Shown here: positions 1 to 52,400 of the stretch, piece after piece
How the letters are laid out: each line of letters begins with the position of its first letter
Position numbering within the stretch: position 1 is the stretch's first letter
Virus record (IMG/VR): IMGVR_UViG_3300032053_000036
Span: 1 to 64,000 of that record
Strand: one strand, 5' to 3'
From: a virus
Taxonomy: Duplodnaviria > Heunggongvirae > Uroviricota > Caudoviricetes > Crassvirales
DNA: 64,000 bases
The notes under the pieces: generated by a model
Database searches by the model: none
Seen by the model: only the letters and a program-made list of their open reading frames with translations
Told to the model about the DNA's origin: nothing
Translations under genes and position numbers: made by a program

Positions 1-30
1 CCTGATGGTGGGTCAATAATTAGTGCCATA

Positions 31-120
31 ATGGAAAATTTTCTATGAATTTAAGCTTTTAGTGGAAAATATTCTTACTAATTCTTTTTTAGTGGAAAAA
101 TATCTTGATTTTAATTGTTC
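31..120. repeat. Degenerate 30-bp direct repeat x3 (iteron-like): (A/G)TGGAAAAT(A)TTCT... starting at 31, 61 and 91.
   Basis: Three units start exactly 30 nt apart. They share the core (A)GTGGAAAA(T)AT(T)CTT and T-rich 3' halves, and they are non-coding. Confidence 0.5.
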
Positions 121-156
121 TCTATAAAATGGCACTAAACTCATTTTACTGCCAAG

Positions 157-435
157 TTATAGTTGTTTTAATTGTTCTCTATACCATTTAGCACAATCCA
201 TAAATCCACTATTATAATGTGGTGTTTCATATCTACTTTTTATTTCTTTCTCTATTTCTTCATCTGATATTTCAAGTTTACTACAATTTGTAGCCATCTC
301 TTGCTTGTGCATTTCTTTGGCTTTTTCAAATATGTTAGGTTGTAATATTGTACCTCTACTATTTATTTCTGCCATTAATTTAAAGTAATACTTTGAAGTT
401 TTTATTTCTGCTATTAACCATTCTATTGATGTCAT
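157..435 (-). CDS. Hypothetical small protein (92 aa).
   Basis: Intact ORF in the co-directional leftward gene array. No motif recognised. Confidence 0.45.
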   Translation of the reverse strand: MTSIEWLIAEIKTSKYYFKLMAEINSRGTILQPNIFEKAKEMHKQEMATNCSKLEISDEEIEKEIKSRYETPHYNSGFMDCAKWYREQLKQL

Positions 436-446
436 TTGTTTAAGTT

Positions 447-713
447 TTAATGGTTTAAAAGTTTAGCATATTCTTTACCCTTGCCATCAGGTTGTACTAT
501 AACACACCAGTCAAATTCTACATCAGGATAGGCAGCTATTCTAGCCTCTATATTATCAAACACTTGTGCATCTTTGTTTATTTGTTTGACATCATCTGGA
601 TGTAATGAATATTGGGTTCCATGTTCCACTATTGTGTCACACTCTGGTGTCTCTTCTGAGACAACTCTAACTACCCATTCTCCACTAATTGTTTTATGTA
701 TTTTACCTTTCAT
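447..713 (-). CDS. Hypothetical small protein (88 aa).
   Basis: Intact ORF, tightly spaced with its neighbours on the minus strand. Confidence 0.45.
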   Translation of the reverse strand: MKGKIHKTISGEWVVRVVSEETPECDTIVEHGTQYSLHPDDVKQINKDAQVFDNIEARIAAYPDVEFDWCVIVQPDGKGKEYAKLLNH

Positions 714-907
714 AGTTTAAATTTATTTGATTATTAGTACTTATAGTACCATTTTGTTTACTTTTTTAAACTGTTTACGTTTTTGTAAACATTTTTACTG
801 GGTAGTTTTCTGTGCAGGTTTCTGTGTAGTTTTTTGCACAAAGTGCTGTTTTTCGACACCTTGTGCAAAATGTTGATTATTTTCAACATTCCTTTGTATA
901 ATGTGTA

Positions 908-1108
908 TTATATTACACATTTTCCTTTGAATAATGTGTCCTTTAAGGTACACTGGTCACAAAATTGAACTGGTAGGTGGTCTATTTCTCCTCTAATGTA
1001 TTGTATTTCCTCAGGAGTGGACTCATGTCCTTCCTTTATTATCTTTCTACATTTAGAGCAAAGAATAGCACCTCTACCACCATTGAATTTTACGATTGCT
1101 TTTTTCAT
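908..1108 (-). CDS. Small Cys-rich zinc-ribbon protein (66 aa).
   Basis: Two CxxC pairs (CSKC...CDQC) separated by about 35 aa with conserved His residues. Its stop is 1 nt from the start of the next ORF. Confidence 0.45.
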   Translation of the reverse strand: MKKAIVKFNGGRGAILCSKCRKIIKEGHESTPEEIQYIRGEIDHLPVQFCDQCTLKDTLFKGKCVI

Positions 1109-1109
1109 G

Positions 1110-1655
1110 TTATTCTATTTTAGCTGTTGAATCAGCAGCTTTTAATGAATCAAGTCTTTGGTTATATGAATTTATAATGCTGTCCAACTGTTCCTGTGTA
1201 AGTAATGGAATCATTGGGGCTATTGTATCTTTCTTTACCTGGTATATAGTGTCAGGCTTTGCTATAATAGGACCATATTTCCATTCATCATACTTTCCTA
1301 GAACATAATCCATCCCTTTATCAAAGAATGTTTCACGATCATTATCTTCATTTGATGCAGATGTTGTAACAAGAGAAGAATGAAACAACATGTAAGTTAG
1401 GCACGACATAAAGAATATAGTCATTAATATTGTTTTAAGTTCATGCAGCCAACCATCATATCTCATTAAGTATTTAGGTTCTATATCCTCTCTACCTCTC
1501 CACACATCTCTTATAATCATCCACCATTTCATTTTAAACTCCTTTGGGTTGATTATTGGAAGAGTTTTTTTCTTATCCCATCCTTCAGGCTTACCATATT
1601 CAAATTTCTTTGTTGTGGTTTCCTCTGTTGTGTATATATTCTCTGGCTTGTTCAT
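1110..1655 (-). CDS. Membrane-anchored protein with a single predicted TM helix (181 aa).
   Basis: Hydrophobic stretch ILMTIFFMSCLTYMLF flanked by charged regions. Confidence 0.45.
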   Translation of the reverse strand: MNKPENIYTTEETTTKKFEYGKPEGWDKKKTLPIINPKEFKMKWWMIIRDVWRGREDIEPKYLMRYDGWLHELKTILMTIFFMSCLTYMLFHSSLVTTSASNEDNDRETFFDKGMDYVLGKYDEWKYGPIIAKPDTIYQVKKDTIAPMIPLLTQEQLDSIINSYNQRLDSLKAADSTAKIE

Positions 1656-1666
1656 AATTGTAATGT

Positions 1667-2008
1667 TTAAACTTCTTCTAATTGTGTTTGTTTTAGTAAT
1701 TCATCCATAGAGAACGCTGTGTTATTACAATCTTTAATCATTTGCATTAGCAGTAATAAGTTTTCATGTGTGAATGCAAATCTACTTGCTGCAAAATACT
1801 CATAAGGAAGACAGCAATCATCTAGTGCTATCTCATCAAGATGAACTCCTAGTGCTTGTGAAGGAATGCTCCACACTGTATATATAATGTAATAGGTTTC
1901 TCCCTTCTTCACCCATTTATCAACAGGAATCTCTTTAGGTCTTTTAGTGTCATCAATACATATTGCTTCTATCATAATGTGCAAATTTAAGAAATAAAAA
2001 CCCCTCAT
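1667..2008 (-). CDS. Hypothetical protein. The true start is probably the internal Met (MIEAICIDD, about 1975), because the annotated ATG lies inside the terminator hairpin.
   Basis: ORF track, plus a hairpin/terminator at 1994-2020 that overlaps the first codons. Confidence 0.4.
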   Translation of the reverse strand: MRGFYFLNLHIMIEAICIDDTKRPKEIPVDKWVKKGETYYIIYTVWSIPSQALGVHLDEIALDDCCLPYEYFAASRFAFTHENLLLLMQMIKDCNNTAFSMDELLKQTQLEEV

Positions 2009-2026
2009 GTAGAAACATAAGGGGAA
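1994..2026 (-). terminator. Rho-independent terminator downstream of the outer-membrane protein gene.
   Basis: Minus-strand hairpin CCCCTTATG-TTTCTA-CATGAGGGG (9 bp, 1 mismatch) followed by TTTTTATTTCTT. Confidence 0.45.
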
Positions 2027-2073
2027 TCAAAAAAAAATGAATATAAAAATCTATTACAAATATAATATAAATA

Positions 2074-2553
2074 TTACAAAGTGTATGCCACTACTAATGC
2101 AATGGTTTTAACAGGGTTTGTTTTCTCAACAATACTAATATAACGTGCATCAACATTAACATGATTCATTTTAACTCCTATGAATGGAGCAAATGAGAAT
2201 GATGTTGTACCATTGTCTTTCTTGTTATAAAATGATAATCCTGCTGAAGAACCAAAATAGGCACTCTCATTAACAAAATACTTTAGTCCAACCATCATTG
2301 GTACTGTAGCAAAGTTTGTCTCAGGATCAGCCTTGAAACGTACATAACCAAAGTCTACAATACCTGTAAACTTGTTATTATACTTTGTACTCACTTGAAA
2401 CCATGTAGAACCAAGATTTACATGTACTTTCTCACTGTTAGCGTCTGTAGGAAGTGCTGTTACAAGACCTACACTAAGGTTTGGCTTTTGTAATTTCTGT
2501 GCGTATGATGCAAATGATGCAAATGATGCAATAATAAGAACTAATTTCTTCAT
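2074..2553 (-). CDS. Secreted outer-membrane beta-barrel-like protein (159 aa) with a Sec signal peptide.
   Basis: N-terminus MKKLVLIIASFASFASYAQK is a Bacteroidota-style signal peptide. The remainder alternates aromatic and hydrophobic residues (FGYVRF, VGLKYFV, SFYNKK, ALVVAYTL), typical of small 8-strand OMPs. Confidence 0.5.
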   Translation of the reverse strand: MKKLVLIIASFASFASYAQKLQKPNLSVGLVTALPTDANSEKVHVNLGSTWFQVSTKYNNKFTGIVDFGYVRFKADPETNFATVPMMVGLKYFVNESAYFGSSAGLSFYNKKDNGTTSFSFAPFIGVKMNHVNVDARYISIVEKTNPVKTIALVVAYTL

Positions 2554-2577
2554 GTTTTAAAATTTTAGATGACAAAT

Positions 2578-2796
2578 TTAATATTTTTCTTTGATTTCAA
2601 GCAAAATAACATTCCTATTTATAACTTGGAGTGCTTTTCCTTCTTTCTCTGTATATATGAGCTGTCTAGCTCTTTTGGCTGTTAAGCCTCTAAAACCATA
2701 ATCAAATGGTGTATCTTCAAGCCTTACAGGCTCTTCTGTAAGAAGAGAGATGTAATTAACATACACATCTCTCTCCATTGCATAGAATCTTCTCAT
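2578..2796 (-). CDS. Hypothetical protein (72 aa).
   Basis: Intact ORF. Its start overlaps the upstream stop (ATGA-type coupling). Confidence 0.4.
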   Translation of the reverse strand: MRRFYAMERDVYVNYISLLTEEPVRLEDTPFDYGFRGLTAKRARQLIYTEKEGKALQVINRNVILLEIKEKY

Positions 2797-3017
2797 TATT
2801 TTGTTCTTTTAAACCTAACAACAAATTGTTTATACTCTTCTGAAGGAGCATAAAAGTATTTATGTTTGGTGATTGTCAATCTATTAGACTTTCTGCCTGT
2901 ATGAGCAAATATTCTATCTATAAGACAAAATGAATTAGCAGTGTTGTCTAGGACTAAAATGTTGTCTCTAGAATGGTCTCTACTACACCATTCTAAACGT
3001 GTGCTTTTAATACGCAT
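2796..3017 (-). CDS. Hypothetical basic protein (73 aa).
   Basis: Intact ORF in an operon-like array. Confidence 0.4.
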   Translation of the reverse strand: MRIKSTRLEWCSRDHSRDNILVLDNTANSFCLIDRIFAHTGRKSNRLTITKHKYFYAPSEEYKQFVVRFKRTK

Positions 3018-3037
3018 GGTTGTGGGGTTTTAATTGT

Positions 3038-3796
3038 TTACATTGTTTTGAACATTTCAAATAGTCTACCTGATTCTTGTGTAGCAAGAGCAAACCTGGT
3101 TTTATTTCTTTTTATCTTCTTGATGAATAGATCATGATCATATGAACTTATAGATCTTCTAAATTTAACATACTCACTACACAAATATCTATTCTCAAAT
3201 CTGCTCATACGATTAACAATCTTTAAAAGATCTGTTAATTGCTTAACTATTTCTACGTTTTGTTTCTCATCTATAATTCTGAATTCTCCTCTTTTTATCT
3301 TTCTTGAGGTTGATCCACCAGATCCTGCCATTCCTCCAGATAGGATATCAGCAAGGATACTGAACTCAAAATCATAAGTAGATTGATATTCGTTTAGCTT
3401 TATATAATCCTCAATCAAAGATGCCCATGCTGTAACATAATCTTGTATAGACCAATTCTTAGAACTTGCATTTAATAAAGCAAGAACCTCAATTAATTCT
3501 TTAGGATCTTTAATAGGAATAAGTACGTATGGAATATCTACGTTGTTCCTAAGGCATGCAGTGAACATGTGCTGACCATCAATTATATACTTGGTCATTC
3601 TTCCTGTAATAAAACTTAGTTCAGCAACAATTACAGGTCTCAATATATCTATTTTGCTAATAGACTCAGCAATAGGATTTACATGAGATGAAACGATTGG
3701 TCTGTTTATACCAGACAAAATACTTAACGCTTTTTTAGAACCTGCTTTCAACCATTTAATGTTTCTTAATGGTGATTTACTTAATAATGCTTTCAT
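3038..3796 (-). CDS. ParB/sulfiredoxin-fold protein with a DGQH motif (252 aa); ParB-like nuclease or DndB-like DNA-binding family.
   Basis: Segment KYIIDGQHMFTACLRNNVDIPYVLIP matches the ParBc/DGQHR-type core (Y-h-h-DGxH-x-x-A-x9-IP). There is a basic C-terminal half. Confidence 0.5.
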   Translation of the reverse strand: MKALLSKSPLRNIKWLKAGSKKALSILSGINRPIVSSHVNPIAESISKIDILRPVIVAELSFITGRMTKYIIDGQHMFTACLRNNVDIPYVLIPIKDPKELIEVLALLNASSKNWSIQDYVTAWASLIEDYIKLNEYQSTYDFEFSILADILSGGMAGSGGSTSRKIKRGEFRIIDEKQNVEIVKQLTDLLKIVNRMSRFENRYLCSEYVKFRRSISSYDHDLFIKKIKRNKTRFALATQESGRLFEMFKTM

Positions 3797-3828
3797 TGTT
3801 TTAATTTTTGATTTCTATGTTTATAAAA

Positions 3829-3866
3829 TTGTTTAAAAAGAAAATGTGCCCAGTTTCCCAGGCACA
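3829..3866 (-). terminator. Rho-independent terminator.
   Basis: Minus-strand hairpin TGTGCC-(10 nt)-GGCACA followed by TTTTCTTTTT. Confidence 0.45.
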
Positions 3867-3892
3867 TAATTCTCATCCATCCCCATAATATT

Positions 3893-4033
3893 TTATCTAT
3901 GGTGTATTCTTGAACTTACATTAAACTGTCTACACCATTGGTTATACTCTCGTACATTGAATGGTCTTTCAGTTGGTGTTAATTTGTTTAGCTGTAGGTC
4001 ATTGTTCTTTGGCTTAATGCCAAATAGTCTCAT
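3893..4033 (-). CDS. Possible small basic protein (about 46 aa, MRLFGIKPK...). The longer poly-Met version (to 4168) is probably an artefact.
   Basis: The ORF-track entry 3893..4168 overlaps the acidic-protein gene in another frame. Only the distal part is non-overlapping. Confidence 0.2.
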   Translation of the reverse strand: MRLFGIKPKNNDLQLNKLTPTERPFNVREYNQWCRQFNVSSRIHHR

Positions 4034-4046
4034 CAAAAGACTTTGT

Positions 4047-4592
4047 TTAATCTTGGTCATAAAGATTGTTTTTTGGATTAGTAAATTGATTTTCCCATTC
4101 ATCATTAGAACTTGGTGGTAAGTATTCTTCATCATCATCAAAGAAATATTCAACATCATCATCATCATTCTCTTCCTCTAGAGGATGACTTAGGATTGCT
4201 TTGTCTTGTATGAATAGAGGAATAGGAAATCCTCTAACATCATATTCATCATCTTCCACCTCTATATCAACACGACAATCATTGTCTAAGATTTGATTTA
4301 TCTCTTTAGATGTAATATCATATAGCTCATCAGACTGTTCTCCTACATCCCACCATCCTATTTGATGTGGATAGGCAATTATATAATCCTCATCAAGATT
4401 TTTATTACCTTCTAGTATTATATATGGATCTACAGGATAACCATTGAGTTGTAGATATGCATCTACATCAATTGGCATAACAGTCAATTGGAATATAACC
4501 ATGTCTTTATTCTGTCTAACAAGGAACAACATACCTCTTTCAAGTCTTAGAGGCTTGTATGATTTAAATATTAGCTTACCTGTGATGTGCAT
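4047..4592 (-). CDS. Highly acidic protein (181 aa); candidate DNA-mimic / anti-restriction-like protein.
   Basis: D/E-rich along its whole length, for example LEEENDDDDVEYFFDDDEEYL and DIEVEDDEYDV, with aromatic residues interspersed as in Ocr/ArdA-type mimics. Confidence 0.45.
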   Translation of the reverse strand: MHITGKLIFKSYKPLRLERGMLFLVRQNKDMVIFQLTVMPIDVDAYLQLNGYPVDPYIILEGNKNLDEDYIIAYPHQIGWWDVGEQSDELYDITSKEINQILDNDCRVDIEVEDDEYDVRGFPIPLFIQDKAILSHPLEEENDDDDVEYFFDDDEEYLPPSSNDEWENQFTNPKNNLYDQD

Positions 4593-4803
4593 ATTAATGT
4601 GTTTTAATTGATGGCTGTGCGTACAATGATGTACTATATCTCATAGCCTTTTTAATTTCTCTGTGTGTAGGCTTATGAGCAATTTGTCTTGTACAGCTGA
4701 GCATTGTTAAAAATAATAGATATTTCATTGATTTCAAAATTTTAATGATGTGGAATCCCCTACGCTCATAAGAGTTTCAGGGATGACCCACACACATAAT
4801 TAT

Positions 4804-4965
4804 TTATTGTGAATTAATACGTTTAACCATTTTGTTCCATGTCTGTTTAGGTGCTCCATGTCCACAACCATATTTATTAGCTGAGCATGAAGATAGAATG
4901 CAACAAACAATTAGTCCTATGACTAATGATAGCATAATTAATAACTTTTTTAATGAATCTGTCAT
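4804..4965 (-). CDS. Small lipoprotein (53 aa), not in the ORF track because it is under 60 aa.
   Basis: Manual translation gives MTDSLKKLLIMLSLVIGLIVCCILSSCSANKYGCGHGAPKQTWNKMVKRINSQ. This is a hydrophobic signal followed by a lipobox-like LSSC, and it starts immediately after a terminator. Confidence 0.4.
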   Translation of the reverse strand: MTDSLKKLLIMLSLVIGLIVCCILSSCSANKYGCGHGAPKQTWNKMVKRINSQ

Positions 4966-4992
4966 TTTAATTGATTTAAATTGTTTAATAAA

Positions 4993-5021
4993 TGAAAAAA
5001 GCCCAGTGTAGAAACACCAGG
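4993..5021 (-). terminator. Rho-independent terminator after the small membrane-protein gene.
   Basis: Minus-strand hairpin CCTGGTGT-TTCT-ACACTGGG (8 bp, 2 G.U) followed by CTTTTTTCATTT. Confidence 0.5.
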
Positions 5022-5051
5022 CGATTATTTATATCCATACCTATTAAAACT

Positions 5052-5240
5052 CTATTTTTTAGCCTTGGTGAACGAATCAAACCAAGCTATTGTTATCAAG
5101 GAACCAAATATGCAAACTGTTAATACAATAATTGCATTAGTTCTTGTACATGGCATAACGCATGTTAATGCCAAAGATACAGCAATAAAGAAGAAGAATG
5201 ATGCTGCTGTCATTAATAAATAAAATGATTTCTTTCCCAT
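5052..5240 (-). CDS. Small membrane protein with two predicted TM helices (62 aa).
   Basis: LLMTAASFFFFIAVSLALTCV and IIVLTVCIFGSLITIAWF. Confidence 0.45.
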   Translation of the reverse strand: MGKKSFYLLMTAASFFFFIAVSLALTCVMPCTRTNAIIVLTVCIFGSLITIAWFDSFTKAKK

Positions 5241-5260
5241 GTTATGTGAGTTTTTAGGGA

Positions 5261-5758
5261 TTAATTAATTTGTTTTCTTTTGTATATGACAAAATAACCT
5301 TTTTCGTTAGGTGTTACTTCTGATATTCTTTCAAACACACCCTCACCAAATACTTTTGTAACAGCAAGGTCAGAATCTGTCCAATCTAATTCTGGGTTAT
5401 ATCTACAAGATATTCCTCCATAATCACATTCAAGAAGAAGGCCATCTGCATCAGATTCAAATATAAGTGTTTCTTCTAATGCTCTAGATGTACTTGCAAT
5501 GATGTATTCAGGATTGTCAGAACGAGATTGTTCCATCTCTTGATCTGCAGACATCATTGCATCACGTAACTGTCTCTCTTCATCTATTGTATCCTGACAA
5601 TCCTCAGGCCATTGATTCTGTCCATATTCAACATCGTAATACTTGTTAATTTGAGCATCATTAAATGCATCCATTGCTCTTTGATATGTCTCTGCATATT
5701 CAAGAACTTCTTCGATGGTAACTACACCATCAGTGAGGAGTTTTTTAATTGTTTCCAT
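5261..5758 (-). CDS. Second highly acidic protein (165 aa); candidate DNA mimic or anti-defence protein.
   Basis: Strongly negative throughout (EDCQDTIDEERQ, DQEMEQSRSDNPEY, ELDWTDSDL). Confidence 0.45.
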   Translation of the reverse strand: METIKKLLTDGVVTIEEVLEYAETYQRAMDAFNDAQINKYYDVEYGQNQWPEDCQDTIDEERQLRDAMMSADQEMEQSRSDNPEYIIASTSRALEETLIFESDADGLLLECDYGGISCRYNPELDWTDSDLAVTKVFGEGVFERISEVTPNEKGYFVIYKRKQIN

Positions 5759-6011
5759 TTTCGTGTATGATTTTTACTTGTTCTATTGGAATATTCCTGA
5801 TATTAAGCCAAGATAATATTCTGCTTAATCTATCCACCTTGATAACATCATCTACATCTCTATCATATAGAGAATATATTTCTGTGCTATTACCAAAATG
5901 GTGTTCGTATTTCACTACATATCTATATTTCTCTGCTTCTATAGATTGTTCTAATTCCTTGAGAAGCTCTAATTGCTTCTCAAGTTTCTCTTTAATAAGA
6001 TTAATAGCCAT
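5745..6011 (-). CDS. Coiled-coil protein (88 aa).
   Basis: Heptad-like N-terminus LIKEKLEKQLELLKELEQSIEAEK. Confidence 0.4.
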   Translation of the reverse strand: MAINLIKEKLEKQLELLKELEQSIEAEKYRYVVKYEHHFGNSTEIYSLYDRDVDDVIKVDRLSRILSWLNIRNIPIEQVKIIHENGNN

Positions 6012-6237
6012 TGTTATTAGTTTTATTGTGATTTAATTTAATATCCTCATCTACCATTTCTATTATAAAGCCTATTAGGCATACATACATAAACCAATAG
6101 ATGATGGAAACACCCCAGAAATTACCATTCTGAAATACCTCATAAGGATTAAATGCAAATCCTGTCAATATAAAACCCATCCACACTAATAGGAAGGGTA
6201 ATGCTGCAAATGTTATTGCTATATACAACTTTCTCAT
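6001..6237 (-). CDS. Small membrane protein with two predicted TM helices (78 aa).
   Basis: ITFAALPFLLVWMGFILTGFAF and IIYWFMYVCLIGFIIEM. Confidence 0.45.
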   Translation of the reverse strand: MRKLYIAITFAALPFLLVWMGFILTGFAFNPYEVFQNGNFWGVSIIYWFMYVCLIGFIIEMVDEDIKLNHNKTNNNGY

Positions 6238-6294
6238 TGTTTAAAATTTATGACAACCCAATATATTTCAATTGGGCTGTCTTATTAGTTAATA

Positions 6295-6588
6295 TTAATA
6301 CCTTTTGAAGTTTATGTATTTTGTAACACTATTATTACATTGCTCCTTCCAAGCCTTGTTAACAAGATATTCTTCCTTCATCCTTGGTGTAGCAAGAATA
6401 ACAATAGGACAATAGTCTGTTTCCATCAATGCATAGTCTTCAGGATTGAATGTTTCAGACATTTGTGGTGTAAACCTACCTGGATTATACGTTGTGTATT
6501 TACCTTCTGAAAGGTTAAGAACAACAACTTTACCATTTACTAATTTGTTTAAGCAGTTTAGTTCTGCTAACAGTGTAATCTTTTTCAT
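6295..6588 (-). CDS. Hypothetical protein (97 aa).
   Basis: Intact ORF. Confidence 0.4.
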   Translation of the reverse strand: MKKITLLAELNCLNKLVNGKVVVLNLSEGKYTTYNPGRFTPQMSETFNPEDYALMETDYCPIVILATPRMKEEYLVNKAWKEQCNNSVTKYINFKRY

Positions 6589-6606
6589 GTGTGTGTGAAT
6601 TTGATT

Positions 6607-6960
6607 TTATAAAAATTGATTAATTACTTGCATTATGCACAAGACAAACTTACTATCAACAGGAACAAGAAATGTATTTGCTATACTATGAGCAATTACA
6701 GCAGGTTTAATTCCTTCTCTAAGCATTAGTTTTCTATGTGCTTTATATTCTCCTTCATATGTACAATCAAGGAATATCTTTCTATTGTCTATAGATAGAT
6801 ATGGTTTATCATACGTATCAATGAATATTGTTGTCTCCATGTTATTTAATTTATGTGTGAATAATAATGTCCCCTCTGCACACAGATGTGTATAATAGAT
6901 ATAACACAAGTTTCTATGACAAGCATAGTCTGTATTGTGTAACGATATTTCACTGTTCAT
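6607..6960 (-). CDS. Hypothetical protein. The start may be the internal Met at about 6840.
   Basis: Intact ORF. The N-terminal 40 aa are Cys/His/Tyr-rich and atypical. Confidence 0.35.
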   Translation of the reverse strand: MNSEISLHNTDYACHRNLCYIYYTHLCAEGTLLFTHKLNNMETTIFIDTYDKPYLSIDNRKIFLDCTYEGEYKAHRKLMLREGIKPAVIAHSIANTFLVPVDSKFVLCIMQVINQFL

Positions 6961-7099
6961 CTATTATTACATCTGTCCACCCTTGGGAACTAATCACTCC
7001 AGATTACTCTGTGTTGCATATCAGTCCTTTATACGACTAATGGTGTGATTAGGCAGTTTTTACCTGCGTGGATTGTGGTGCATTAAACAAATGGGCCTA

Positions 7100-7291
7100 T
7101 TACAGCCCATATATTATCGACTCTAAACCTAAATCATTACATATGTTAAAAGTATTCCTACTAGTCATAATTGTTTCTGTATTACCACTAGGCTGTATAA
7201 GTATAACCTTTACATCCTTAATGTCAGAACCTTTCATTAATGATATGTCATTGTATGAGAAACTAGTTCCCTTTACTACTAATGTTTCCAT
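7100..7291 (-). CDS. Possible small ORF (63 aa).
   Basis: It overlaps an equally weak plus-strand ORF (7068..7319). I chose minus only because of the neighbouring gene direction. Confidence 0.15.
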   Translation of the reverse strand: METLVVKGTSFSYNDISLMKGSDIKDVKVILIQPSGNTETIMTSRNTFNICNDLGLESIIYGL

Positions 7292-7440
7292 GTTATTGCT
7301 ATATATTTTGTTTGAATAATTGTTTCTGAGTATTGTAATTTATTGGTCTTAAGGGCTAAGTGAGTATACTGCACTCTGTTTATCAATGAGTTATGAATAT
7401 TCCCACCCAAATGAGCCACGTACATTGCTCCCACCCTTAT

Positions 7441-7475
7441 ATACGAAAAAGAAAGAGGGACAAAGTCCCCCTTTC
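7441..7475 (-). terminator. Strong rho-independent terminator after the GC-rich gene.
   Basis: Minus-strand hairpin GAAAGGGGGAC-TTT-GTCCCTCTTTC (11-bp stem) followed by TTTTTCGTAT, 18 nt past the stop. Confidence 0.6.
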
Positions 7476-7492
7476 GAGAATTGCGTCAGCAA

Positions 7493-7930
7493 TTAGACAG
7501 AAGCATTAGCCAATGTGCTGACATCACTTGTGGTTAAGCCACGAGAAGATGCAATCTTAGTGGTCTCGTGTTGAATCTCTTGTTCCAAGAGGTTCTCTTC
7601 AACGTGAGCACCAATAAGTTGTGTCTTCTTAGTGAAGACAGACAAGGCAGTAAGACGTGTCATTGTGTTAGAGCCATCAGCAAAAGGAATAGAATTCCCT
7701 TGGTCGTCTTTTCTTGCATTGAAGGTTTTAATTTCAGCAATGCAGAAAAGAGGATTGTCAACTGTGATAGGGTTTGTGCCCTTCACTTTGTCTGTGCCAA
7801 TCATTTCATTGGTCAGACCAAGTGATGTTAGTTGACGAGAGTAGATGTGAATTCTTTCGCCTTTTGATGTGTAGGCAGACACGTTACCCTTGTCTGTGCA
7901 AGTGGCAGAAGTGATGATGTAATTTTTCAT
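7493..7930 (-). CDS. Hypothetical protein (145 aa) in a GC-rich, moron-like cassette.
   Basis: It has the longest intergenic region upstream and its own terminator. Its GC looks about 10 points above its neighbours. CCCACCC motifs flank it. Confidence 0.5.
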   Translation of the reverse strand: MKNYIITSATCTDKGNVSAYTSKGERIHIYSRQLTSLGLTNEMIGTDKVKGTNPITVDNPLFCIAEIKTFNARKDDQGNSIPFADGSNTMTRLTALSVFTKKTQLIGAHVEENLLEQEIQHETTKIASSRGLTTSDVSTLANASV

Positions 7931-8151
7931 CTTTTTGAATGTTTTAGTGAAAAAATGATTAAAAATGTAGCGTGGTGGGGGATTACCCCAACACCCTTTG
8001 CGTAGGCTGGGGTGCCAATATGGAGTAGTCTCTTCTCCTATAGATATAGTATGCCTACCATTTTAGAAAAAATTTTATTTTTTTGTAACAAGAATATTCC
8101 TGACCTTTGAAGGGTGGAGGGTGGGAATAGATCTTCCTTAATACATAAACG

Positions 8152-8403
8152 ATGATTATACCTTTATTGCTTATTACGTTAATCACTTTTATAGCCTATC
8201 CTATTATATTTGGATTAAGGGATGCTATGTTTGTTGATTTTATATTAGAGGTGAAAATCCTATCTAGTCAGTATTATACATTTGGTATGTGGTTTATACA
8301 GCATGATGTAGAAGATCCTGAATATATAGAGCAGGAATTTACAATTGCTCTGTTTTTATTCTCTATGTCCCTAGTGTTTTATAAGCATAAAGACGATGCA
8401 TAA
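8152..8403 (+). CDS. Small membrane protein (83 aa).
   Basis: Hydrophobic N-terminus IIPLLLITLITFIAYPIIFGL. It is the first gene of the rightward array. Confidence 0.4.
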   Translation: MIIPLLLITLITFIAYPIIFGLRDAMFVDFILEVKILSSQYYTFGMWFIQHDVEDPEYIEQEFTIALFLFSMSLVFYKHKDDA

Positions 8404-8456
8404 TATAGCTATGTAGAAAACAATTGTATTTGGAAGTATAACAAGTTTGATTATAT

Positions 8457-8825
8457 TTGTATAAACTAAATATGGAACCAACAAAAGGAATATTACAGAA
8501 GCTCAGAAGGAAGGAAGACAATGATCTCCTAATAGCAGAGAAATATTACACCATCCTTTCAGCTGTTAACAATCTCCATTTGACAAATAGAGAGATACAG
8601 CTTATAGCGTTTACAGCTGTTAAGGGGAACATTTCTTATTCTAATATTAGGCAGGAGTTTTGTGACATTTACAAGACAACAAGTCCAACGATTAATAATA
8701 TAATCAGTAAGCTTAAGAAGATTAAAGTGCTAGTGAAGGATGGGACAAAAGTGAAGGTGAATAATATGATTGTTCTGGATTTTGCAAAGGACATAACATT
8801 AGAAATTAAGCTGACGCATGGATAA
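8457..8825 (+). CDS. Hypothetical protein (122 aa), possibly DNA-binding.
   Basis: Intact ORF. Basic, with a helix-rich composition. Confidence 0.4.
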   Translation: MYKLNMEPTKGILQKLRRKEDNDLLIAEKYYTILSAVNNLHLTNREIQLIAFTAVKGNISYSNIRQEFCDIYKTTSPTINNIISKLKKIKVLVKDGTKVKVNNMIVLDFAKDITLEIKLTHG

Positions 8826-9231
8826 GCCCATTTCACTATCTATGAAGGAATATCTTGTCAGGACACAAGCTGTCAAGATGATGATTTCTGAAAAAACAAT
8901 TGAGGCTGTAATAAACCACCAGTTTAATACAGCAAATGAGGCGTTGAAGACAAATAATAGTGTAGAAATCTCAGGATTTGGAAAGTTTACGTTCAACTAC
9001 AAGAAGGCCCTGAAGAAGATGGAGAAGATGTTGTCTCAACAGCAGCTCTTTCAAAGTAGGATAGATAATCCTGCATTGTCAGAACAGAGAAGAGCAACAG
9101 AAACAGTGAAACTAAATAATGTCATTCATAATATAAACATTTTAAAACCAAAGCTTTATGAATTTCAAACAAATCCTGGAGGGCTGGAGGAACAACACCC
9201 TGCCACCAACGCATCTGAAGGAACTGATTAG
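8818..9231 (+). CDS. HU/IHF-like histone-like DNA-binding protein (137 aa).
   Basis: MKEYLVRTQAVKMMISEKTIEAVINHQFNTANEALKTNNSVEISGFGKFTFNYKK aligns position by position with the HU N-terminal helices and the GFGxF beta-strand (E. coli HU: ...[20 protein letters not shown]). The arm region is degenerate. Confidence 0.45.
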   Translation: MDKPISLSMKEYLVRTQAVKMMISEKTIEAVINHQFNTANEALKTNNSVEISGFGKFTFNYKKALKKMEKMLSQQQLFQSRIDNPALSEQRRATETVKLNNVIHNINILKPKLYEFQTNPGGLEEQHPATNASEGTD

Positions 9232-10188: not shown

Positions 10189-10552
10189 AAAACAAATGAT
10201 TAAACGTAAGGATGGTTCTACATCTCAACGTGGATTGTGGGATAACATAAGAGCTAATGCAGGCTCTGGTAAAAAGCCTACACCTGAAATGCTTAAGCAG
10301 GAAAAGAAAATAAAGCAAGCTAAAACAGGAGCATGGCAGAGAAAGGAAGGAAAGAGTCCTTCTGGTGGTCTCAATGCTAAGGGTAGAGCATCATTAAAAG
10401 CTGAGGGGCATAATATCAAACCTCCTCAGCCAGAAGGTGGTCCTAGGAAAAAGTCATTCTGTGCTAGGATGGGTGGAGTAAAAGGACCTATGAAAAAACC
10501 TGATGGATCACCAACAAGAAAAGCTTTAGCTTTAAGAAAATGGAAATGTTAA
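10175..10552 (+). CDS. Very basic Lys/Arg/Gly/Pro-rich protein (125 aa); nucleic-acid-binding or internal virion protein.
   Basis: Composition KRKDGSTSQRG...GKKPT...KKIKQAK...RKKSF. Confidence 0.45.
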   Translation: MATVKKQMIKRKDGSTSQRGLWDNIRANAGSGKKPTPEMLKQEKKIKQAKTGAWQRKEGKSPSGGLNAKGRASLKAEGHNIKPPQPEGGPRKKSFCARMGGVKGPMKKPDGSPTRKALALRKWKC

Positions 10553-16031: not shown

Positions 16032-16089
16032 AGTAAAAAACATTAATGCTATATTATCGTGCAAATTCATACATAAAATGTTCTAACTC

Positions 16090-49477: not shown

Positions 49478-52400
49478 ATGCCAATTTTTGATAAAGAGCT
49501 TATAGATAATATTTCTAATAGAGAAAATGTACTTCCTAATATGCCACTTGGTTCTCCTGTTACAAGGGAACTTAATACTGACATGGGAGGATATGGACTT
49601 GAAACTGATTCAAAAGGAGGATTGACAATTGATCAATTATCAAATATTAAAGCTAGTAATAGTACAGGATTTGATTCTCCTTTTCAAATGATTCCTAAGA
49701 GTGAACTCTTGTCAAATCAAAGATACTCAATGTATGAAAGAGACAAAGATCTTGAAAATACATATGGGTTACAACAAGGAGCATTGTCACAGCTTGGTAA
49801 TGGTGTTGTTAAAATGGCTGCTACACTTGGTGGAACATTCTTACAGGGGTTTGCAACTATTCCTAATACAATCGCTTCTTTCAAAGGAGGAGTTAAAGAA
49901 CTATCTGGTGTTGAAGGATATGAATCTGATATAGATAATTGGTTAAAGAACATAGAAGATAGATTCCCAAACTATGTAACAAAAAAAGAACAAGAACATC
50001 CTTTCTTAGCAGCTATTCCTGGATTTGCAGGAAGTGCTAATTTCTGGGGAGATAAGATTATTAAAAACATTGGTTTTACAGTGGGTGCTATTGGCAGTGC
50101 CTTAGTACAAGATGCTGTTGTGGGATTTGCTACAGAGGGTCTTGGAGAGATTCCATTAGTTGCAAATCAAATTGGTAAAGCTTCACTATATTTAAATAAA
50201 CTTTTTACAGGAACAAACGATATTGAAAAAACATTACAGATTGCAACATCTTTAGGAAAGAGTGAAAAGGCAATGTTGAATATAAAAAGACTTGGAGAAC
50301 TTGCTGCTGCTGAAAAAGTAAGTAATGGGTTTAGATATGGATTGAATATATACAGTTCTGCAAGAACAGAAGCTGCTATTGAGGCTAGAGATGGATATAG
50401 ACAAGTTAAAGAAATATTAACCACTCAATACAAAGAAGGAAATTTAGGAGAAGAACCTTCAGGAAAAGATCTTACAGACATTGAACAATATGCAACAGAT
50501 GCTATGAATACTAGATTTGGTATTAACATGGCTATCCTTACAGTGAGTAATGCTTTTCAATTTGATAATCTATTTAAGTCTGTTAGTAATGGAGCTACTA
50601 CAAAAGGTGTAGGTTCAGGACTTATAAAAGATATTCAAGATGCTGGTAAGGTAGGTCTTAAGGAAGGATCTTTAGATGTATTTGAGAAGAAACTTCCAAC
50701 AAGCTTTATGGGTAAAGTTTGGGAAAGTGTTAAGCCTAAAACAGCAAGTATATTCAGAGAGGGTGTATATGAAGAAGGTGGACAGTATGCTGCTGAGCGT
50801 GGTACATATGATTATTATACAAGAAAGTATAAAGATCCAAAAAGAAGAGAAAGTATAGATAACTGGAATACACTAAATGAAGTTATAGATTCTACAGTTA
50901 AGGGTCTTAATGATCAGTTTGGTACCACTGAGGGTATAGAGAATATGTTGATTGGTGGTATATCAGGAATGTTGATGGATGCAGGAATGCAAACATATGA
51001 TAGAGCTAAAGGTAAAGGAAAAGATAAGAGATTGGACACTGCAGTGAGTCTACTTAATAGATATGGTCTTACAGGAATTCTTGGTCAAAAATATACAGAT
51101 ACATTAAACTCTGTAAACATTGCACAGGAAATGACTAAAGCTGCTAGAACAGGTAATGTGTTTAGATATCAAAATCTAAAAGATGACATGTTCTTTGGAT
51201 TTGTTAATTCTAGACTTGGATCTAACATGCACGATGTAACCATTGAGCAGTTAAGAATGTTGAAAGATCTTGATAAGGAGGAGTTTGAAAAAACCTTTGG
51301 AATGAACTTCAGTGAATCAAACAAATCTACTGTTGGTGAATATGTTGATGGATTGATAAGTAAAGCAAATGAAATAAAGAAAATCTCTGATTCTGTAAAT
51401 AATACATACAAGAATGTTTTCACTTTCTATGATGATCCTGGAGATGATCAAGATAAAAAAGAAAGTAATAAAAACTACAACACATTTGAGACCTGGAAAA
51501 CAAACCTCATCTATGAAGGTAGTGTTATGAAAAACACAAACCAGAGATTGGTTGATGTACAACAATCTCTTAGTAAGATAAATCCCCTTATAACAAATGA
51601 TCTTGCTAGTAGATTGATGGATGAAGATTCTCTTAGAGAACTTAGTCAAGATTATGAAGAACAAGCCAAAACACTTCTTGGTACATTGAATGATGCTATG
51701 TCATTTGATGAGAGAAGAAAAGTTAAAGAGCAGGCTAAACAATTACGTACAGCATCAGAGATAGCAATGATGGCTGCTAATGATGGACAAATTTCGCAGA
51801 AAGATTTTGCAAAAATTCTTAATTATGAATTAAATGGTAGAGATGGCTCTAAAGATGATGTTGTCACTATAGATAGAGTTAACGACATTCAAACATTAGG
51901 ACACGATATCAATATGATTAATGCTAGAAAGAAAGATGCATCTAATGCGTTTGAAATTCTTTCTAGTGAAAAAGGTTTTGAAAAGTTTTTCAAAGATGAA
52001 AACGATATTGCAGCAGCAGCAGAAAAAGCAGCCTTTGATAGAGAGGAGGTTAAGAAAAGACCTCTTCCAGAATTTACAAATGTTGGAGGTGTAAAAGAAG
52101 CAATACAACTTGAAAGAGAATACCAAGCTCAACCTAAGAAAGGATCTAAGGTTAGAAAACTTGCTGCAGATAGATTTAGAGTTATAGATCCTGATGGTAA
52201 GGTGACATTCTACCCAACTAGAGAAAAGGCTCAAGAGGCAGCTGCTGATATTGATCTTAGATACACTGAGCTCTCAAAGATTAAAATACTTGCTGTTAAT
52301 GCTGATGGTACAATTAAAGTGCAAGATGTTAAAGGTAACATCCAAAACATTGGATTAGGAGAACTTGAAGGATATGAAAAGATAATCACTGAGCAAGAAA

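Follow-up and report, generated by a model that had tools for sequence, protein, structure and literature searches.

The interval 7398-8129 of the window, by which we mean the whole 64-kb stretch of phage DNA that was analysed, holds, in the reading that we prefer with moderate confidence, a conserved self-contained expression unit flanked by strand-oriented G-tract control elements that act in cis and are most likely of the G-quadruplex type. This reading builds on the observed conservation of the elements, on their orientation and position relative to promoter and terminator, and on the OB fold predicted for the product of the central gene. The unit would comprise a promoter-like region of its own, a structured 5′ leader, an A/U-rich stretch, a GC3-enriched SSB-like ORF and a strong terminator, and each of the two units flanking the OB-fold gene would be headed by one G-tract element on its non-template (RNA-like) strand. 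The right copy would lie directly past a host-type -33/-7 promoter of the packaging and structural unit, and the left copy, as G3-T-G3/spacer/G3-T-G3, directly past the terminator of the gene, heading the leftward early region.

The phage is a crAss-like member of an uncultured freshwater clade, with a member of the Bacteroidota as its probable host. Its TerL shows 40% identity to that of Leptolyngbya phage Lbo-JY46 and also has crAss-type matches, one relative with identical gene order carries a Crass_capsid Pfam domain, and a 4402-aa protein of the giant virion-RNAP type contains the DFDID motif described in 10.1101/2020.03.07.982082. In the comparison set of more than 80 related contigs, the relatives in which both flanks are present share the locus order portal, terminase, small genes, HU-like gene, divergent junction, OB-fold-gene slot and small early genes, and the site and orientation of the OB-fold gene are identical in every one of them. 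Synteny and motifs are kept even at about 40% protein identity, and also in a relative whose slot contains another protein family. At the divergent junction the genes change orientation and the cumulative GC skew switches; the neighbours there are the SSB-like gene, a wHTH gene (8472-8825) weakly similar to Phage_rep_O (E 0.0036) and the HU-like gene. Neither the region nor the protein was matched by blastn and tblastn among 50,697 phage records, Rfam searched by E-value with 7000-8600 yielded chance miRNA matches only, and GGGTGGG is absent from the first 9 kb of Cellulophaga phage phi14:2 and from the 19-kb TerL locus of Lbo-JY46. The full pattern of the left element matched cellular genomes 37 times; nearly all of these were, by inspection, unrelated occurrences in GC-rich genomes, and the single real match was a mis-binned Sediminibacterium contig. 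The G-tract element appears confined to the clade, none having been seen in the unrelated phages scanned or, as a genuine occurrence, in cellular genomes.

The initial annotation saw the interval as a GC-rich cassette bounded by an exact 11-bp inverted repeat, and the repeat is indeed there: TATTCCCACCC at 7398-7408 (+) has its exact reverse complement at 8119-8129. Exact 11-bp inverted repeats with arms no more than 1 kb apart are at chance frequency in the window, with 55 matches as against 42 in simulated sequence and, among those with at least 6 G/C, two observed as against about one expected. Judged from the sequence, this repeat is two oppositely pointing copies of one conserved G-rich motif that flank the OB-fold gene. 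GGGTGGG is always on the RNA-like strand of the local transcription unit, and all three exact copies of GGGTGGGA in the window fall inside the interval, each on the sense strand of its unit. Exact CCCACCC occurs five times in the window and three of the five are inside the 730-bp interval; the annotation had counted four there, the supposed fourth being GGGTGGA at 8112-8118. Its idea of a regulatory motif array at the divergent early/late junction comes near the outcome of the comparison, in which the motif is a conserved strand-oriented cis element heading the two flanking units. As a complementary pair the arms are not conserved, since in L004 and L005 they read TATTCCCTCCC and GGGTGGGAATA, one central mismatch breaking the 11-bp complementarity, and in L012 and L014 the complementarity is down to a 7-nt core. 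Long-range RNA pairing of the arms, as in an RNase III-type stem around the mRNA, was rejected given this loss in L004 and L005 and the upstream arm probably lying upstream of the gene's own promoter. Also rejected were Chi-like recombination hotspots, which would, in these orientations, shield the 730-bp interior only, and a Shine-Dalgarno-like role, which would sit poorly with start codons that are too distant and a poor match to the anti-SD.

The left element (7398-7443, minus strand) consists of TATATAAGGGTGGG, a 21-nt spacer and GGGTGGGAATA, and its last 11 nt are the left repeat arm. G3-T-G3-N21-G3-T-G3 at 7402-7436 (-) is the sole four-tract G3 motif in the 64 kb. The element is unchanged in the first 14 related loci, which were found via the protein, and each of 78 viral contigs in IMG/VR has a single TATATAAGGGTGGG-spacer-GGGTGGG, the spacer measuring 9-35 nt and 61 distinct variants being represented. 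It lies 38-110 nt past the stop codon of the OB-fold gene in 36 variants, and in 23 others it follows a different small gene with its terminator. Because the search pattern prescribed the first half of the element, its variability is under-sampled, and a search with the half-pattern TATATAAGGGTGGG gave, beside mostly unrelated matches, about ten informative clade variants, in which the G-tracts are kept, the linkers are changed (GGGATGGG, GGGTTGGG) and the spacers are of 2 or 6 nt. Overall the spacers thus span 2-35 nt, and the single-T linker can be swapped for AT or TT. The conservation of the G-tracts while linkers and spacer vary suggests a cis-regulatory element of the G-quadruplex type. 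Stems anchored at the 5′ end of the spacer are enriched, with a mean length of 3.64 as against 2.91 in shuffles (shuffle maximum 3.26), and most spacer hairpins are thermodynamically negligible when folded alone; once the spacer exceeds 15 nt, the folding model is unable to assess a G4 and favours hairpins into which part of a G-tract is drawn.

Further conserved sequences lie between the left element and the early genes. The block ATAACTCATTGAT just downstream of the element (7382-7394, minus strand) recurs in many relatives, namely L022, L036, L040, L061, L091, L158 and L221. The ATATAGCAATAA motif (7293-7304, minus strand) stands 1 nt before the first early ORF, whose ATG is at 7291, and nearly all relatives keep it in the form ATATATAGCATTAA, at a distance of 0-40 nt from the first early ORF on its upstream side; a second conserved copy of this type is found at 16043-16054 (-). 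In the relatives, AT-rich palindromes (CCTATATATATAGG) and other repeats are also seen between the G element and the early operon, and the palindromes are absent from the window. For TATATAAG, which stands before the left element, we considered and rejected the role of a canonical -7 box, as it deviates at two of the TTTG positions and is without a conserved -33 TTTG.

On the right side, TTTG-N21-TAnnTTTG occupies the matching position in 29 of the relatives' 47 loci whose flank is long enough, 24 of the 29 having the 21-nt spacer, for a pattern with a background rate of 0.012 per kb. This is like the promoters of Bacteroidota sigma-A (-33 TTTG, -7 TAnnTTTG; PMC2483708, PMC7641319), and it faces the first rightward ORF. 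The putative promoter of the window (8082-8109, plus strand), placed by the consensus of the relatives, would serve the rightward unit of an 83-aa ORF, the wHTH and HU-like genes, terminase, portal and onward. It is degenerate by comparison with the sigma-A consensus: the -7-like box GACCTTTG at 8102-8109 matches 7 of 8 positions, TTTG (8082-8085) is found 16 nt upstream of it and TTTT stands at the canonical 21-nt spacing, so that the window offers a weaker promoter match than its relatives. The first rightward ORF (8152-8403, plus strand) encodes a hydrophobic product of 83 aa by the ORF list, and an ORF of 82-83 aa occupies the same position in L004, L012 and L014.

The right G-tract block, GGGTGGAGGGTGGGAATA (8112-8129, plus strand), includes the right repeat arm, starts 2 nt past the -7-like box and ends 22 nt before the ATG at 8152. 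Of the compact four-tract G motifs in the window it is the best; its tracts of 3, 2, 3 and 3 fit only a two-layer or bulged G4. Relatives have G blocks at this position with differing linkers (GGGCGGAGGGTGGG, GGGTGGTTGGGTGGG, GCGGGTGGGTGGG, G6ATTTAG7, G7AAG8), the linkers across the set being T, C, A, TT, ATTTA and AA. In the commonest block, GGGTGGAGGGTGGG, one tract is just GG and that GG is itself conserved; a canonical three-layer G4 accounts for this less well than does a quadruplex with two layers or a bulge, or else a site recognised by its sequence. In some lineages no more than three G3 tracts are present. The G4 model of ViennaRNA places a quadruplex in the minimum-energy structure of the right block, and does so wherever it can evaluate one. 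What sets these loci apart from the sigma-A promoters of the hosts is that the 3′ G of the -7 box runs straight on into a conserved G block of several tracts, an arrangement for which, to our knowledge, there is no description in host promoters.

The c-MYC NHE III1 (GGGTGGGGAGGGTGGGG) is a promoter-proximal G-quadruplex, and quadruplex-duplex hybrids carry a hairpin in a long loop. The phage elements share with the former the G3 runs with single T or A linkers, GGGTGGAGGGTGGG being almost of the c-MYC type, and the left element resembles the latter in its order of G3-T-G3, long loop and G3-T-G3 with 5′-anchored stems in the spacer. They differ from c-MYC-type quadruplexes in their AT-rich genomic setting, in the one tract of the right block that is just GG, and in being known from sequence and a folding model. 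In the mechanism we propose, the G-tract blocks would act in cis on transcript starts, most likely through G-quadruplex-type folding, either of the displaced DNA strand or of the 5′ end of the RNA, with a hairpin-prone central loop in the case of the left element, and such structures would tune initiation, promoter escape or 5′-end stability.

The gene between the two elements (7493-7930, minus strand) had been singled out for its raised GC, and it ranks first of 47 ORFs in both GC (0.418) and GC3 (0.404), the means being 0.341 and 0.250. The neighbouring rightward genes are GC-high in kind as well, with a GC3 of 0.39. The homologous gene shows a GC excess in 14 of 14 relatives tested (average +0.078), so that the excess is a property of the gene itself and not a mark of recent transfer. 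It has, as had been noted, a strong intrinsic terminator of its own (7446-7475, minus strand), with an 11-bp stem at 7475-7451 (-) containing 6 G-C pairs and followed by a T-run, and the relatives have a terminator at the same place with a different sequence. The non-coding region upstream of the gene is not the largest in the window, as had been supposed: on a map of ORFs of at least 60 aa, its 221-nt gap is exceeded by gaps of 459 and 250 nt before other leftward ORFs.

The 145-aa product is an orphan for which a five-stranded OB barrel of the SSB/S1/cold-shock-like kind, followed by C-terminal helices, is predicted. Pfam, PHROGs and PDB sequences contain no match to this protein, nor to its family members, of which 56 and 30 were searched; protein patterns of the window protein and of P0015 found nothing in viral contigs, and by sequence membership the slot protein falls outside described SSB families such as PF00436. 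The slot is filled by sequence families that do not match one another (A2, A3/A5 and a miscellaneous A4 set) next to an unchanged left motif, so that, within a conserved regulatory frame, the ORF was either exchanged or altered past recognition; both slot protein families yield a predicted OB fold. The gene product is best seen as a candidate small, SSB-like OB-fold protein of the DNA/RNA-binding type, going by the fold model, and it is presumably abundantly expressed.

Upstream of the gene, a promoter-like region (8022-8048, minus strand) recognised by its conservation combines a TATA box (8039-8048), a putative purine-rich start and a small 5′ hairpin GGAG..CUCC (8022-8038). It is kept in many relatives as (T)GTATAnA-GGGAGrGG..CTACTCC, with AAAATTTT and CCCCCC boxes upstream of it, it is tandemly duplicated in L005, and the arms of the hairpin covary from GGAG/CTCC to GGG/CCC in L019, L027 and L087. 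From this pattern we infer that the OB-fold gene has its own promoter. The roughly 115 nt before the ATG are nearly invariant across relatives with 61-97% protein identity, the leader being conserved more strongly than the coding sequence. Frame-shifting indels indicate that the leader is non-coding; together with an in-frame stop in the window, they also led us to reject the call made in P0001 and P0006, where it extends the protein at the N-terminus.

The structured part of the leader (7977-8012, minus strand) includes the GC hairpin noticed earlier, which is present as GGGGG-ATTA-CCCC at 7977-7989 within a longer imperfect stem. Its runs on the minus strand are C-run 1 (8009-8012), GGGUG (7993-7997), GGGG (7986-7989) and C-run 2 (7977-7981). 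This triad of C-run, G-run and C-run is found in 24 of 37 loci examined (22 distinct leader sequences), its closing pairs change compatibly for both possible hairpins, C1:G and G:C2, and thermodynamic folding is split, the G-run pairing with C-run 2 in 10 leaders and with C-run 1 in 8. An A/U-rich stretch of 35-60 nt, longer in some loci, then leads to the AUG (7931-7976, minus strand, in the window); across the 22 leaders its AU content is about 0.72 and its mean unpaired probability 0.6-0.7, so that it is predicted to be mostly unpaired.

The operator of T4 gene 32, to which gp32 itself binds, begins with a 5′ pseudoknot and continues as an unstructured A/U-rich tract in which the ribosome-binding site lies. 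The phage gene likewise encodes an SSB-like protein with a predicted OB fold, and its leader has a GC-rich structure 35-60 nt before the AUG and then an A/U-rich, mostly unpaired tract over the initiation region. There is no sequence similarity to gp32 or its operator, and in place of a pseudoknot the phage leader looks like two alternative hairpins that share one G-run. By this analogy, we infer that the OB-fold gene is controlled through its leader, possibly by autogenous translational repression as in T4 gene 32.

The strongest rival to a quadruplex-type element, which we regard as possible if doubtful, takes GGGTGGG/CCCACCC as sequence-specific sites for a protein regulator with no need for a nucleic-acid structure. 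Candidates for the regulator are the OB-fold protein, which would bind single strands rich in G, as well as the wHTH protein (8472-8825), the HU-like protein and some factor of the host; once bound, it would set the timing of the early-to-late switch or let the locus regulate itself. The conserved GG of the right block would suit such a site; however, the spacing of 2-35 nt within the left copy is awkward for cooperative binding to duplex DNA, some right blocks (G6ATTTAG7, G7AAG8) are without GGGTGGG, and the left motif stays constant next to slot proteins of mutually non-matching families.

An unlikely alternative gives the G-runs a kinetic role, in which starts within them would make initiation GTP-dependent or allow reiterative transcription and so couple expression to the nucleotide status of the host; iNTP-sensing rRNA promoters and B. 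subtilis pyrG are known examples of kinetic control. As the G block begins 0-3 nt past the -7 box in 29 loci, the transcript probably begins inside the G-run, and the promoter-like region of the OB-fold gene also runs into GGAG/GGGAGG, with leader C-runs that could pair with extra 5′ G residues. This role leaves unexplained, however, both the second GGGTGGG conserved 9-35 nt downstream at the left element and the retention of four tracts, and we know of no documentation of such a mechanism in the Bacteroidota.

Quite improbable, in our judgement, is that the junction is a replication origin at which outward G-rich transcripts form R-loops or hybrid quadruplexes that prime DNA synthesis, for which ColE1 RNA II and the mitochondrial CSB II are precedents, with the SSB-like, Rep-O-like wHTH and HU-like proteins assisting. 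The switch of gene orientation and skew at the junction, these three neighbours, the single copy of the G element per genome and the palindromes and repeats of the relatives would agree with an origin. Yet the skew switch is expected from the change of gene orientation alone, the Rep-O match is below the Pfam cut-off, and HU/IHF-like genes are standard in the structural block of crAss-like phages (10.1101/2020.03.07.982082). Neither the AT-rich palindromes nor an iteron array is present in the window.

The early promoters of the phage N4 virion RNAP are DNA hairpins on a single-stranded template, with SSB as a cofactor. Our phage likewise has a giant virion-RNAP-type protein with the DFDID motif, and a single-copy structured element that heads the early region beside an SSB-like gene. 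The bipartite element (TATATAAGGGTGGG, hairpin-prone spacer, GGGTGGG) might, as a long shot, be the entry site or promoter of the crAss-type virion RNA polymerase, where a quadruplex-duplex hybrid in the non-template strand would keep the C-rich template open and the fast-evolving SSB-like protein would be the cofactor. The phi14:2 enzyme transcribes single-stranded or denatured DNA, and the same study found no common promoter motif, no promoter being defined for crAss virion RNAPs (10.1101/2020.03.07.982082). The polymerase family differs from that of N4, being of the two-barrel crAss type, and the link to N4 is speculative.

The suggestion of the initial annotation that the interval is a horizontally acquired moron-like cassette, or an invertible segment, whose recombination sites would be the 11-bp repeats, is barely credible, given that the slot is occupied and its flanking motifs are present, with the gene in the same site and orientation, in every relative with both flanks, that all 14 relatives tested share the raised GC, that repeats of this length occur at chance frequency and lose their complementarity in close relatives, and that no recombinase was recognised by Pfam or PHROGs among 16 neighbouring proteins, many small ORFs being unannotated and 64 kb of about 115 kb covered. 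In its favour are a unit with its own terminator, raised GC and a promoter-like region known from conservation, the exactness of the repeat, and the different protein families that occupy one slot among relatives. The PeSL of T4-type phages are mobile cassettes of promoter and stem-loop. Like them and the morons of lambdoid phages, the locus consists of one gene, equipped with a promoter-like region and a terminator, between two larger units, with a variable ORF between kept regulatory sequences. It departs from them in a slot that is always filled, in one predicted fold, in a conserved composition bias that does not look foreign and in the lack of presence/absence polymorphism. With the invertons of Bacteroidales it shares a short inverted repeat around a promoter-containing segment and a probable Bacteroidota host, but the complementarity of its arms is not kept among relatives, a single orientation is seen in every assembled contig that has both flanks, no invertase was found nearby, and the segment holds a whole gene and terminator instead of a promoter alone.

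Little is understood of how crAss-like phages control transcription. The locus offers two concrete candidates for early and late control points in a large freshwater branch that is uncultured: a G-tract element, present in single copy and deeply conserved, at the head of the early region, and a related block, joined to a host-type promoter, at the head of the late region. It also teaches that a short inverted repeat, rich in GC and placed around a divergent junction, can be one oriented motif used both ways. With conservation stronger in the leader than in the coding sequence, the orphan OB-fold family is a candidate for an autoregulated SSB. If the G-quadruplex reading is true, the elements would be an unusually clear case of purifying selection on a quadruplex-forming sequence in an AT-rich phage genome, and if the left one were in addition the entry site of the virion RNAP, it would follow the logic of N4, a hairpin promoter with SSB, built on a G-quadruplex.

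The interval 7398-8129 sits at a divergent junction, since in the ORF map of the window small leftward ORFs fill positions 1-7930 and rightward ORFs begin at 8152. The initial annotation had described it as a moron-like, possibly invertible cassette, and several of the features on which that rested were recovered: TATTCCCACCC at 7398-7408 has its exact reverse complement at 8119-8129, the OB-fold gene (7493-7930, minus strand) has a GC of 0.418 and a GC3 of 0.404, both the highest of the 47 ORFs (means of 0.341, sd 0.031, and 0.250, sd 0.065, respectively), its strong terminator has an 11-bp stem at 7475-7451 (minus strand), and the GC hairpin, GGGGG-ATTA-CCCC, is found at 7977-7989. Three of the window's five exact CCCACCC copies are inside the interval (as are all three of its exact GGGTGGGA copies), but three is one fewer than the four claimed, and other upstream gaps are larger than the one of 221 nt that had been called the largest. 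Exact 11-bp inverted repeats within 1 kb are statistically ordinary in the window (55 observed vs 42 in simulated sequence; 2 vs about 1 for GC-rich repeats), so that the significance of the motif must rest on comparison.

In order to make this comparison, 11 contigs with close homologues were aligned on the strand of the OB-fold gene, and two with homologues only ~40% identical (L012 and L014) joined later. Synteny is constant (portal, terminase, small genes, HU-like gene, an 82-83-aa ORF, divergent gap, OB-fold gene, small early ORFs), and the orientation of the OB-fold gene is identical in every contig with both flanks. The high GC, which had been taken as a possible foreign mark, exceeds that of the other ORFs in all 14 relatives tested (mean +0.078), and GC3 is likewise raised, at 0.39, in the rightward neighbours (8472-8825 and 8818-9231); the composition is a property of the gene and no sign of recent transfer, probably reflecting expression level or amino-acid content. 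The 11-bp complementarity is lost in two relatives, L004 and L005 (TATTCCCTCCC upstream vs GGGTGGGAATA downstream), only a 7-nt core is common to both arms of L012 and L014, and no recombinase was found among the scanned neighbours of the OB-fold gene. The moron and the invertible switch are thus both unsupported. What stands is a self-contained unit of unusual composition within a regulatory hotspot, but not the repeat as the ends of an acquired cassette: the unit goes back to the ancestor of a large clade, and the inverted repeat is two outward-facing copies of one oriented element.

On the plus strand of the relatives, AAATAAATTTGG, 21 nt and TAnnTTTG lead, after 0-3 nt, into a G-rich block. 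Bacteroidetes promoters have TTTG as their -33 consensus and TAnnTTTG as their -7 consensus (PMC2483708; PMC7641319). Of 47 loci with sufficient flanking sequence, a regular-expression count recovered the arrangement on the divergent strand in 29, 24 of them with a 21-nt -33/-7 spacer, against a background of 0.012 matches per kb elsewhere in the same loci. The block exists as GGGTGGAGGGTGGG, GGGCGGAGGGTGGG, GGGTGGTTGGGTGGG, GCGGGTGGGTGGG, G6ATTTAG7 and G7AAG8, in every variant a set of G-tracts. With a -7-like box (GACCTTTG, 8102-8109) and a G block (GGGTGGAGGGTGGG, 8112-8125) on the plus strand before the first rightward ATG of the ORF map at 8152, the right repeat arm belongs to the putative start region of the rightward transcription unit, although the -33 match of the window is imperfect. 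Read on the minus strand, the complement of this promoter and block occupies 8129-8082 and is followed by an A/T-rich spacer.

The left-hand element (7443-7398, minus strand, after the terminator at 7475-7446) is bipartite: in every relative, a few nt after the terminator T-run, (C/T)(A/G)TATATAAGGGTGGG is followed by a variable spacer and GGGTGGG. An IMG/VR scan for TATAAGGGTGGG-N(8-36)-GGGTGGG, a pattern holding the first half fixed, matched 78 contigs with exactly one copy in each, for a total of 61 distinct variants with spacers of 9-35 nt. An OB-family gene ends 38-110 nt upstream of the element in 36 variants, and 23 more have another small protein (115-180 aa) plus a terminator in its place. 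Scanning for the first half only gave mostly unrelated matches, along with clade members that have GGGATGGG, GGGTTGGG or GGTGGGG as their second half, or a spacer as short as 2 or 6 nt. The full pattern had 37 matches in 596 Gb of cellular genomes, one being a true clade member, a mis-binned phage contig, and the rest, by inspection, unrelated and in GC-rich genomes. At 10440-10475 of a related locus, L221, the second GGGTGGG of the element is followed by ACTAAAAAACCCACCTTTTG and could form a terminator-like hairpin as well (GGTGGG/CCCACC and a T-run); a partner for such a hairpin is absent in the window.

We favour the reading, drawn from sequence and folding models, that the G-tract elements would act structurally, as G-quadruplexes or similar. 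The tracts are kept across relatives while linkers switch among T, A, C, AT, TT and ATTTA, and the central spacer of the left element is free in sequence and varies from 2 to 35 nt, which is the pattern expected of a quadruplex-forming sequence. The 64 kb contain no four-tract G3 motif other than the left element, and their best compact four-tract motif is the right element. With its G4 model, ViennaRNA predicts a quadruplex within the minimum-energy structure of the right-hand 5′ region (-10.2 vs -8.5 kcal/mol in the window, -22.8 vs -10.7 in its relative L015) and in short-spacer left elements too. Stems anchored at the 5′ end of the spacer average 3.64 vs 2.91 in shuffles, none of which reached 3.64, and would suit a quadruplex-duplex hybrid, although most spacer stems are negligible when folded alone. 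Against a quadruplex, the commonest right-hand block has a conserved GG as its second tract, the right side of some lineages counts just three G3 tracts, and the first half of the left element was set by the scan pattern. A sequence-specific reader of the elements is the alternative that fares best, yet it is rather unlikely, given that kept tracts with variable linkers and spacer poorly fit cooperative protein binding on duplex DNA. A role in GTP sensing or reiterative initiation is improbable, and an R-loop or origin role slightly more so.

Among relatives whose proteins share only 61-97% identity, the ~115 nt before the ATG of the OB-fold gene hardly vary, and frame-shifting indels, together with an in-frame stop in the window, show this stretch to be non-coding. 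The architecture of this leader, examined in 37 loci, runs from a TATA-like box through a purine-rich start with a small hairpin (box and hairpin at 8048-8022, minus strand) and a C-G-C triad (8012-7977) to an A/U-rich tract (7976-7931) of 35-60 nt or more that reaches the AUG of the coding sequence (7930-7493). The hairpin arms covary (GGAG/CUCC to GGG/CCC). The triad, present in 24 of the 37 loci (22 distinct leader sequences), consists of a first C-run, 8-18 nt, a G-run, 3-11 nt and a second C-run, and the closing nucleotides of both possible helices (C1:G and G:C2) change compatibly (T:A, A:T, C:G). On folding, 10 leaders favour G:C2, 8 favour C1:G and one is split 50/50, and the tract to the AUG (~72% AU) is predicted to be mostly unpaired. 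The autogenous operator of T4 gene 32 likewise places a structured element ahead of an initiation region that is AU-rich and unstructured, and this geometry resembles that of the window's leader before an SSB-like gene. By analogy, and with modest confidence, the likeliest mode of control would be autogenous, the OB-fold protein acting through its own leader. Upstream of the OB gene in L005 (~60-170) a promoter-like unit, AAAATTTTT...TATAGGAGrAGAGACTA, is tandemly duplicated, and L014 has three AAATTTTT...CCCCCTAG repeats, which suggests stacked promoters.

Beyond the left element, a block also kept in relatives, ATAACTCATTGAT(T), lies at 7394-7382 (minus strand), and ATATAGCAATAA at 7304-7293 is separated by 1 nt from the first early ORF (ATG at 7291). 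In many relatives a hairpin and GGTGTGTAACC after ATAACTCATTGAT are also conserved between the left element and the early operon, and others have CCTATATATATAGG palindromes and AAAAAGTTT..AAACTTTTT inverted repeats at that place; the region could be a non-coding RNA or origin-like. ATATATAGCATTAA precedes the first early ORF in nearly all relatives. Its form ATATAGCA(A/T)TAA is found in the window at 7293-7304 and 16043-16054 (both minus strand), at 2314 and 10579 of L221 and at 9196 of L017, another related locus. The second conserved copy in the window is antisense, in the gap that separates a 176-aa gene (Band_7 in L221) from the structural gene after it. The motif could represent a separate class of promoter or binding site.

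The rightward block encodes a large terminase with 40% identity to that of Leptolyngbya phage Lbo-JY46, 33% to Cellulophaga phi4:1 and ~26% to gut crAss-like phages, as well as the portal, the major head protein and giant proteins. One of these, a 4402-aa ORF (49478-62686, plus strand), has at residue 3274 a DFDID, described as the catalytic motif for phi14:2 gp66, a virion RNA polymerase of the crAss type (10.1101/2020.03.07.982082); the motif is common to both, but the window protein is twice the size of gp66. A relative with the same gene order has a Crass_capsid Pfam domain, and the related contigs come from freshwater metagenomes and reach ~113-117 kb. Two of them are binned with Bacteroidota, namely L193 (59 kb, in a Sediminibacterium MAG) and P0154 (113 kb, labelled Cytophagia), which is a hint to the host and a contamination flag for those bins. 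Taken together, these data indicate that the window is from a divergent, uncultured crAss-like phage, with a freshwater Bacteroidota as its probable host. Immediately right of the junction are a 117-aa protein (8472-8825, plus strand) with a weak, sub-threshold Phage_rep_O winged-helix match (E 0.0036) and, overlapping it, an HU/IHF-like gene (8818-9231, plus strand; PF00216, E 6e-8). A ParB-like protein (phrog_12305, E 9e-18) is encoded at 3038-3796 (minus strand) among otherwise unannotated leftward early genes. In a profile search, P0010, a 4665-aa protein, gave 49 separate matches to the OB-family profile (residues 20-73); it could be a giant protein made of repeats of a related module or a low-complexity artefact. 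The strongest G4Hunter score of the window (-2.12) belongs to the C-rich ACCACCAACACCCCCTCCCCCTCCT at 54748-54772, inside the giant polymerase ORF.

We found no description of these G-tract and leader elements in the literature, nothing relevant there on G-quadruplexes in Crassvirales, and no match to the locus in Rfam. Host-type promoters, promoter-proximal G-tracts and SSB-like genes with a regulatory leader are each of a known kind, and the novelty is in their combination and depth of conservation. The phi14:2 study reported no motif for early promoters (10.1101/2020.03.07.982082). It is very improbable that the left element is the entry site of the virion RNA polymerase, held open by a quadruplex; if this were true, it would be the long-sought entry site of the crAss polymerase.
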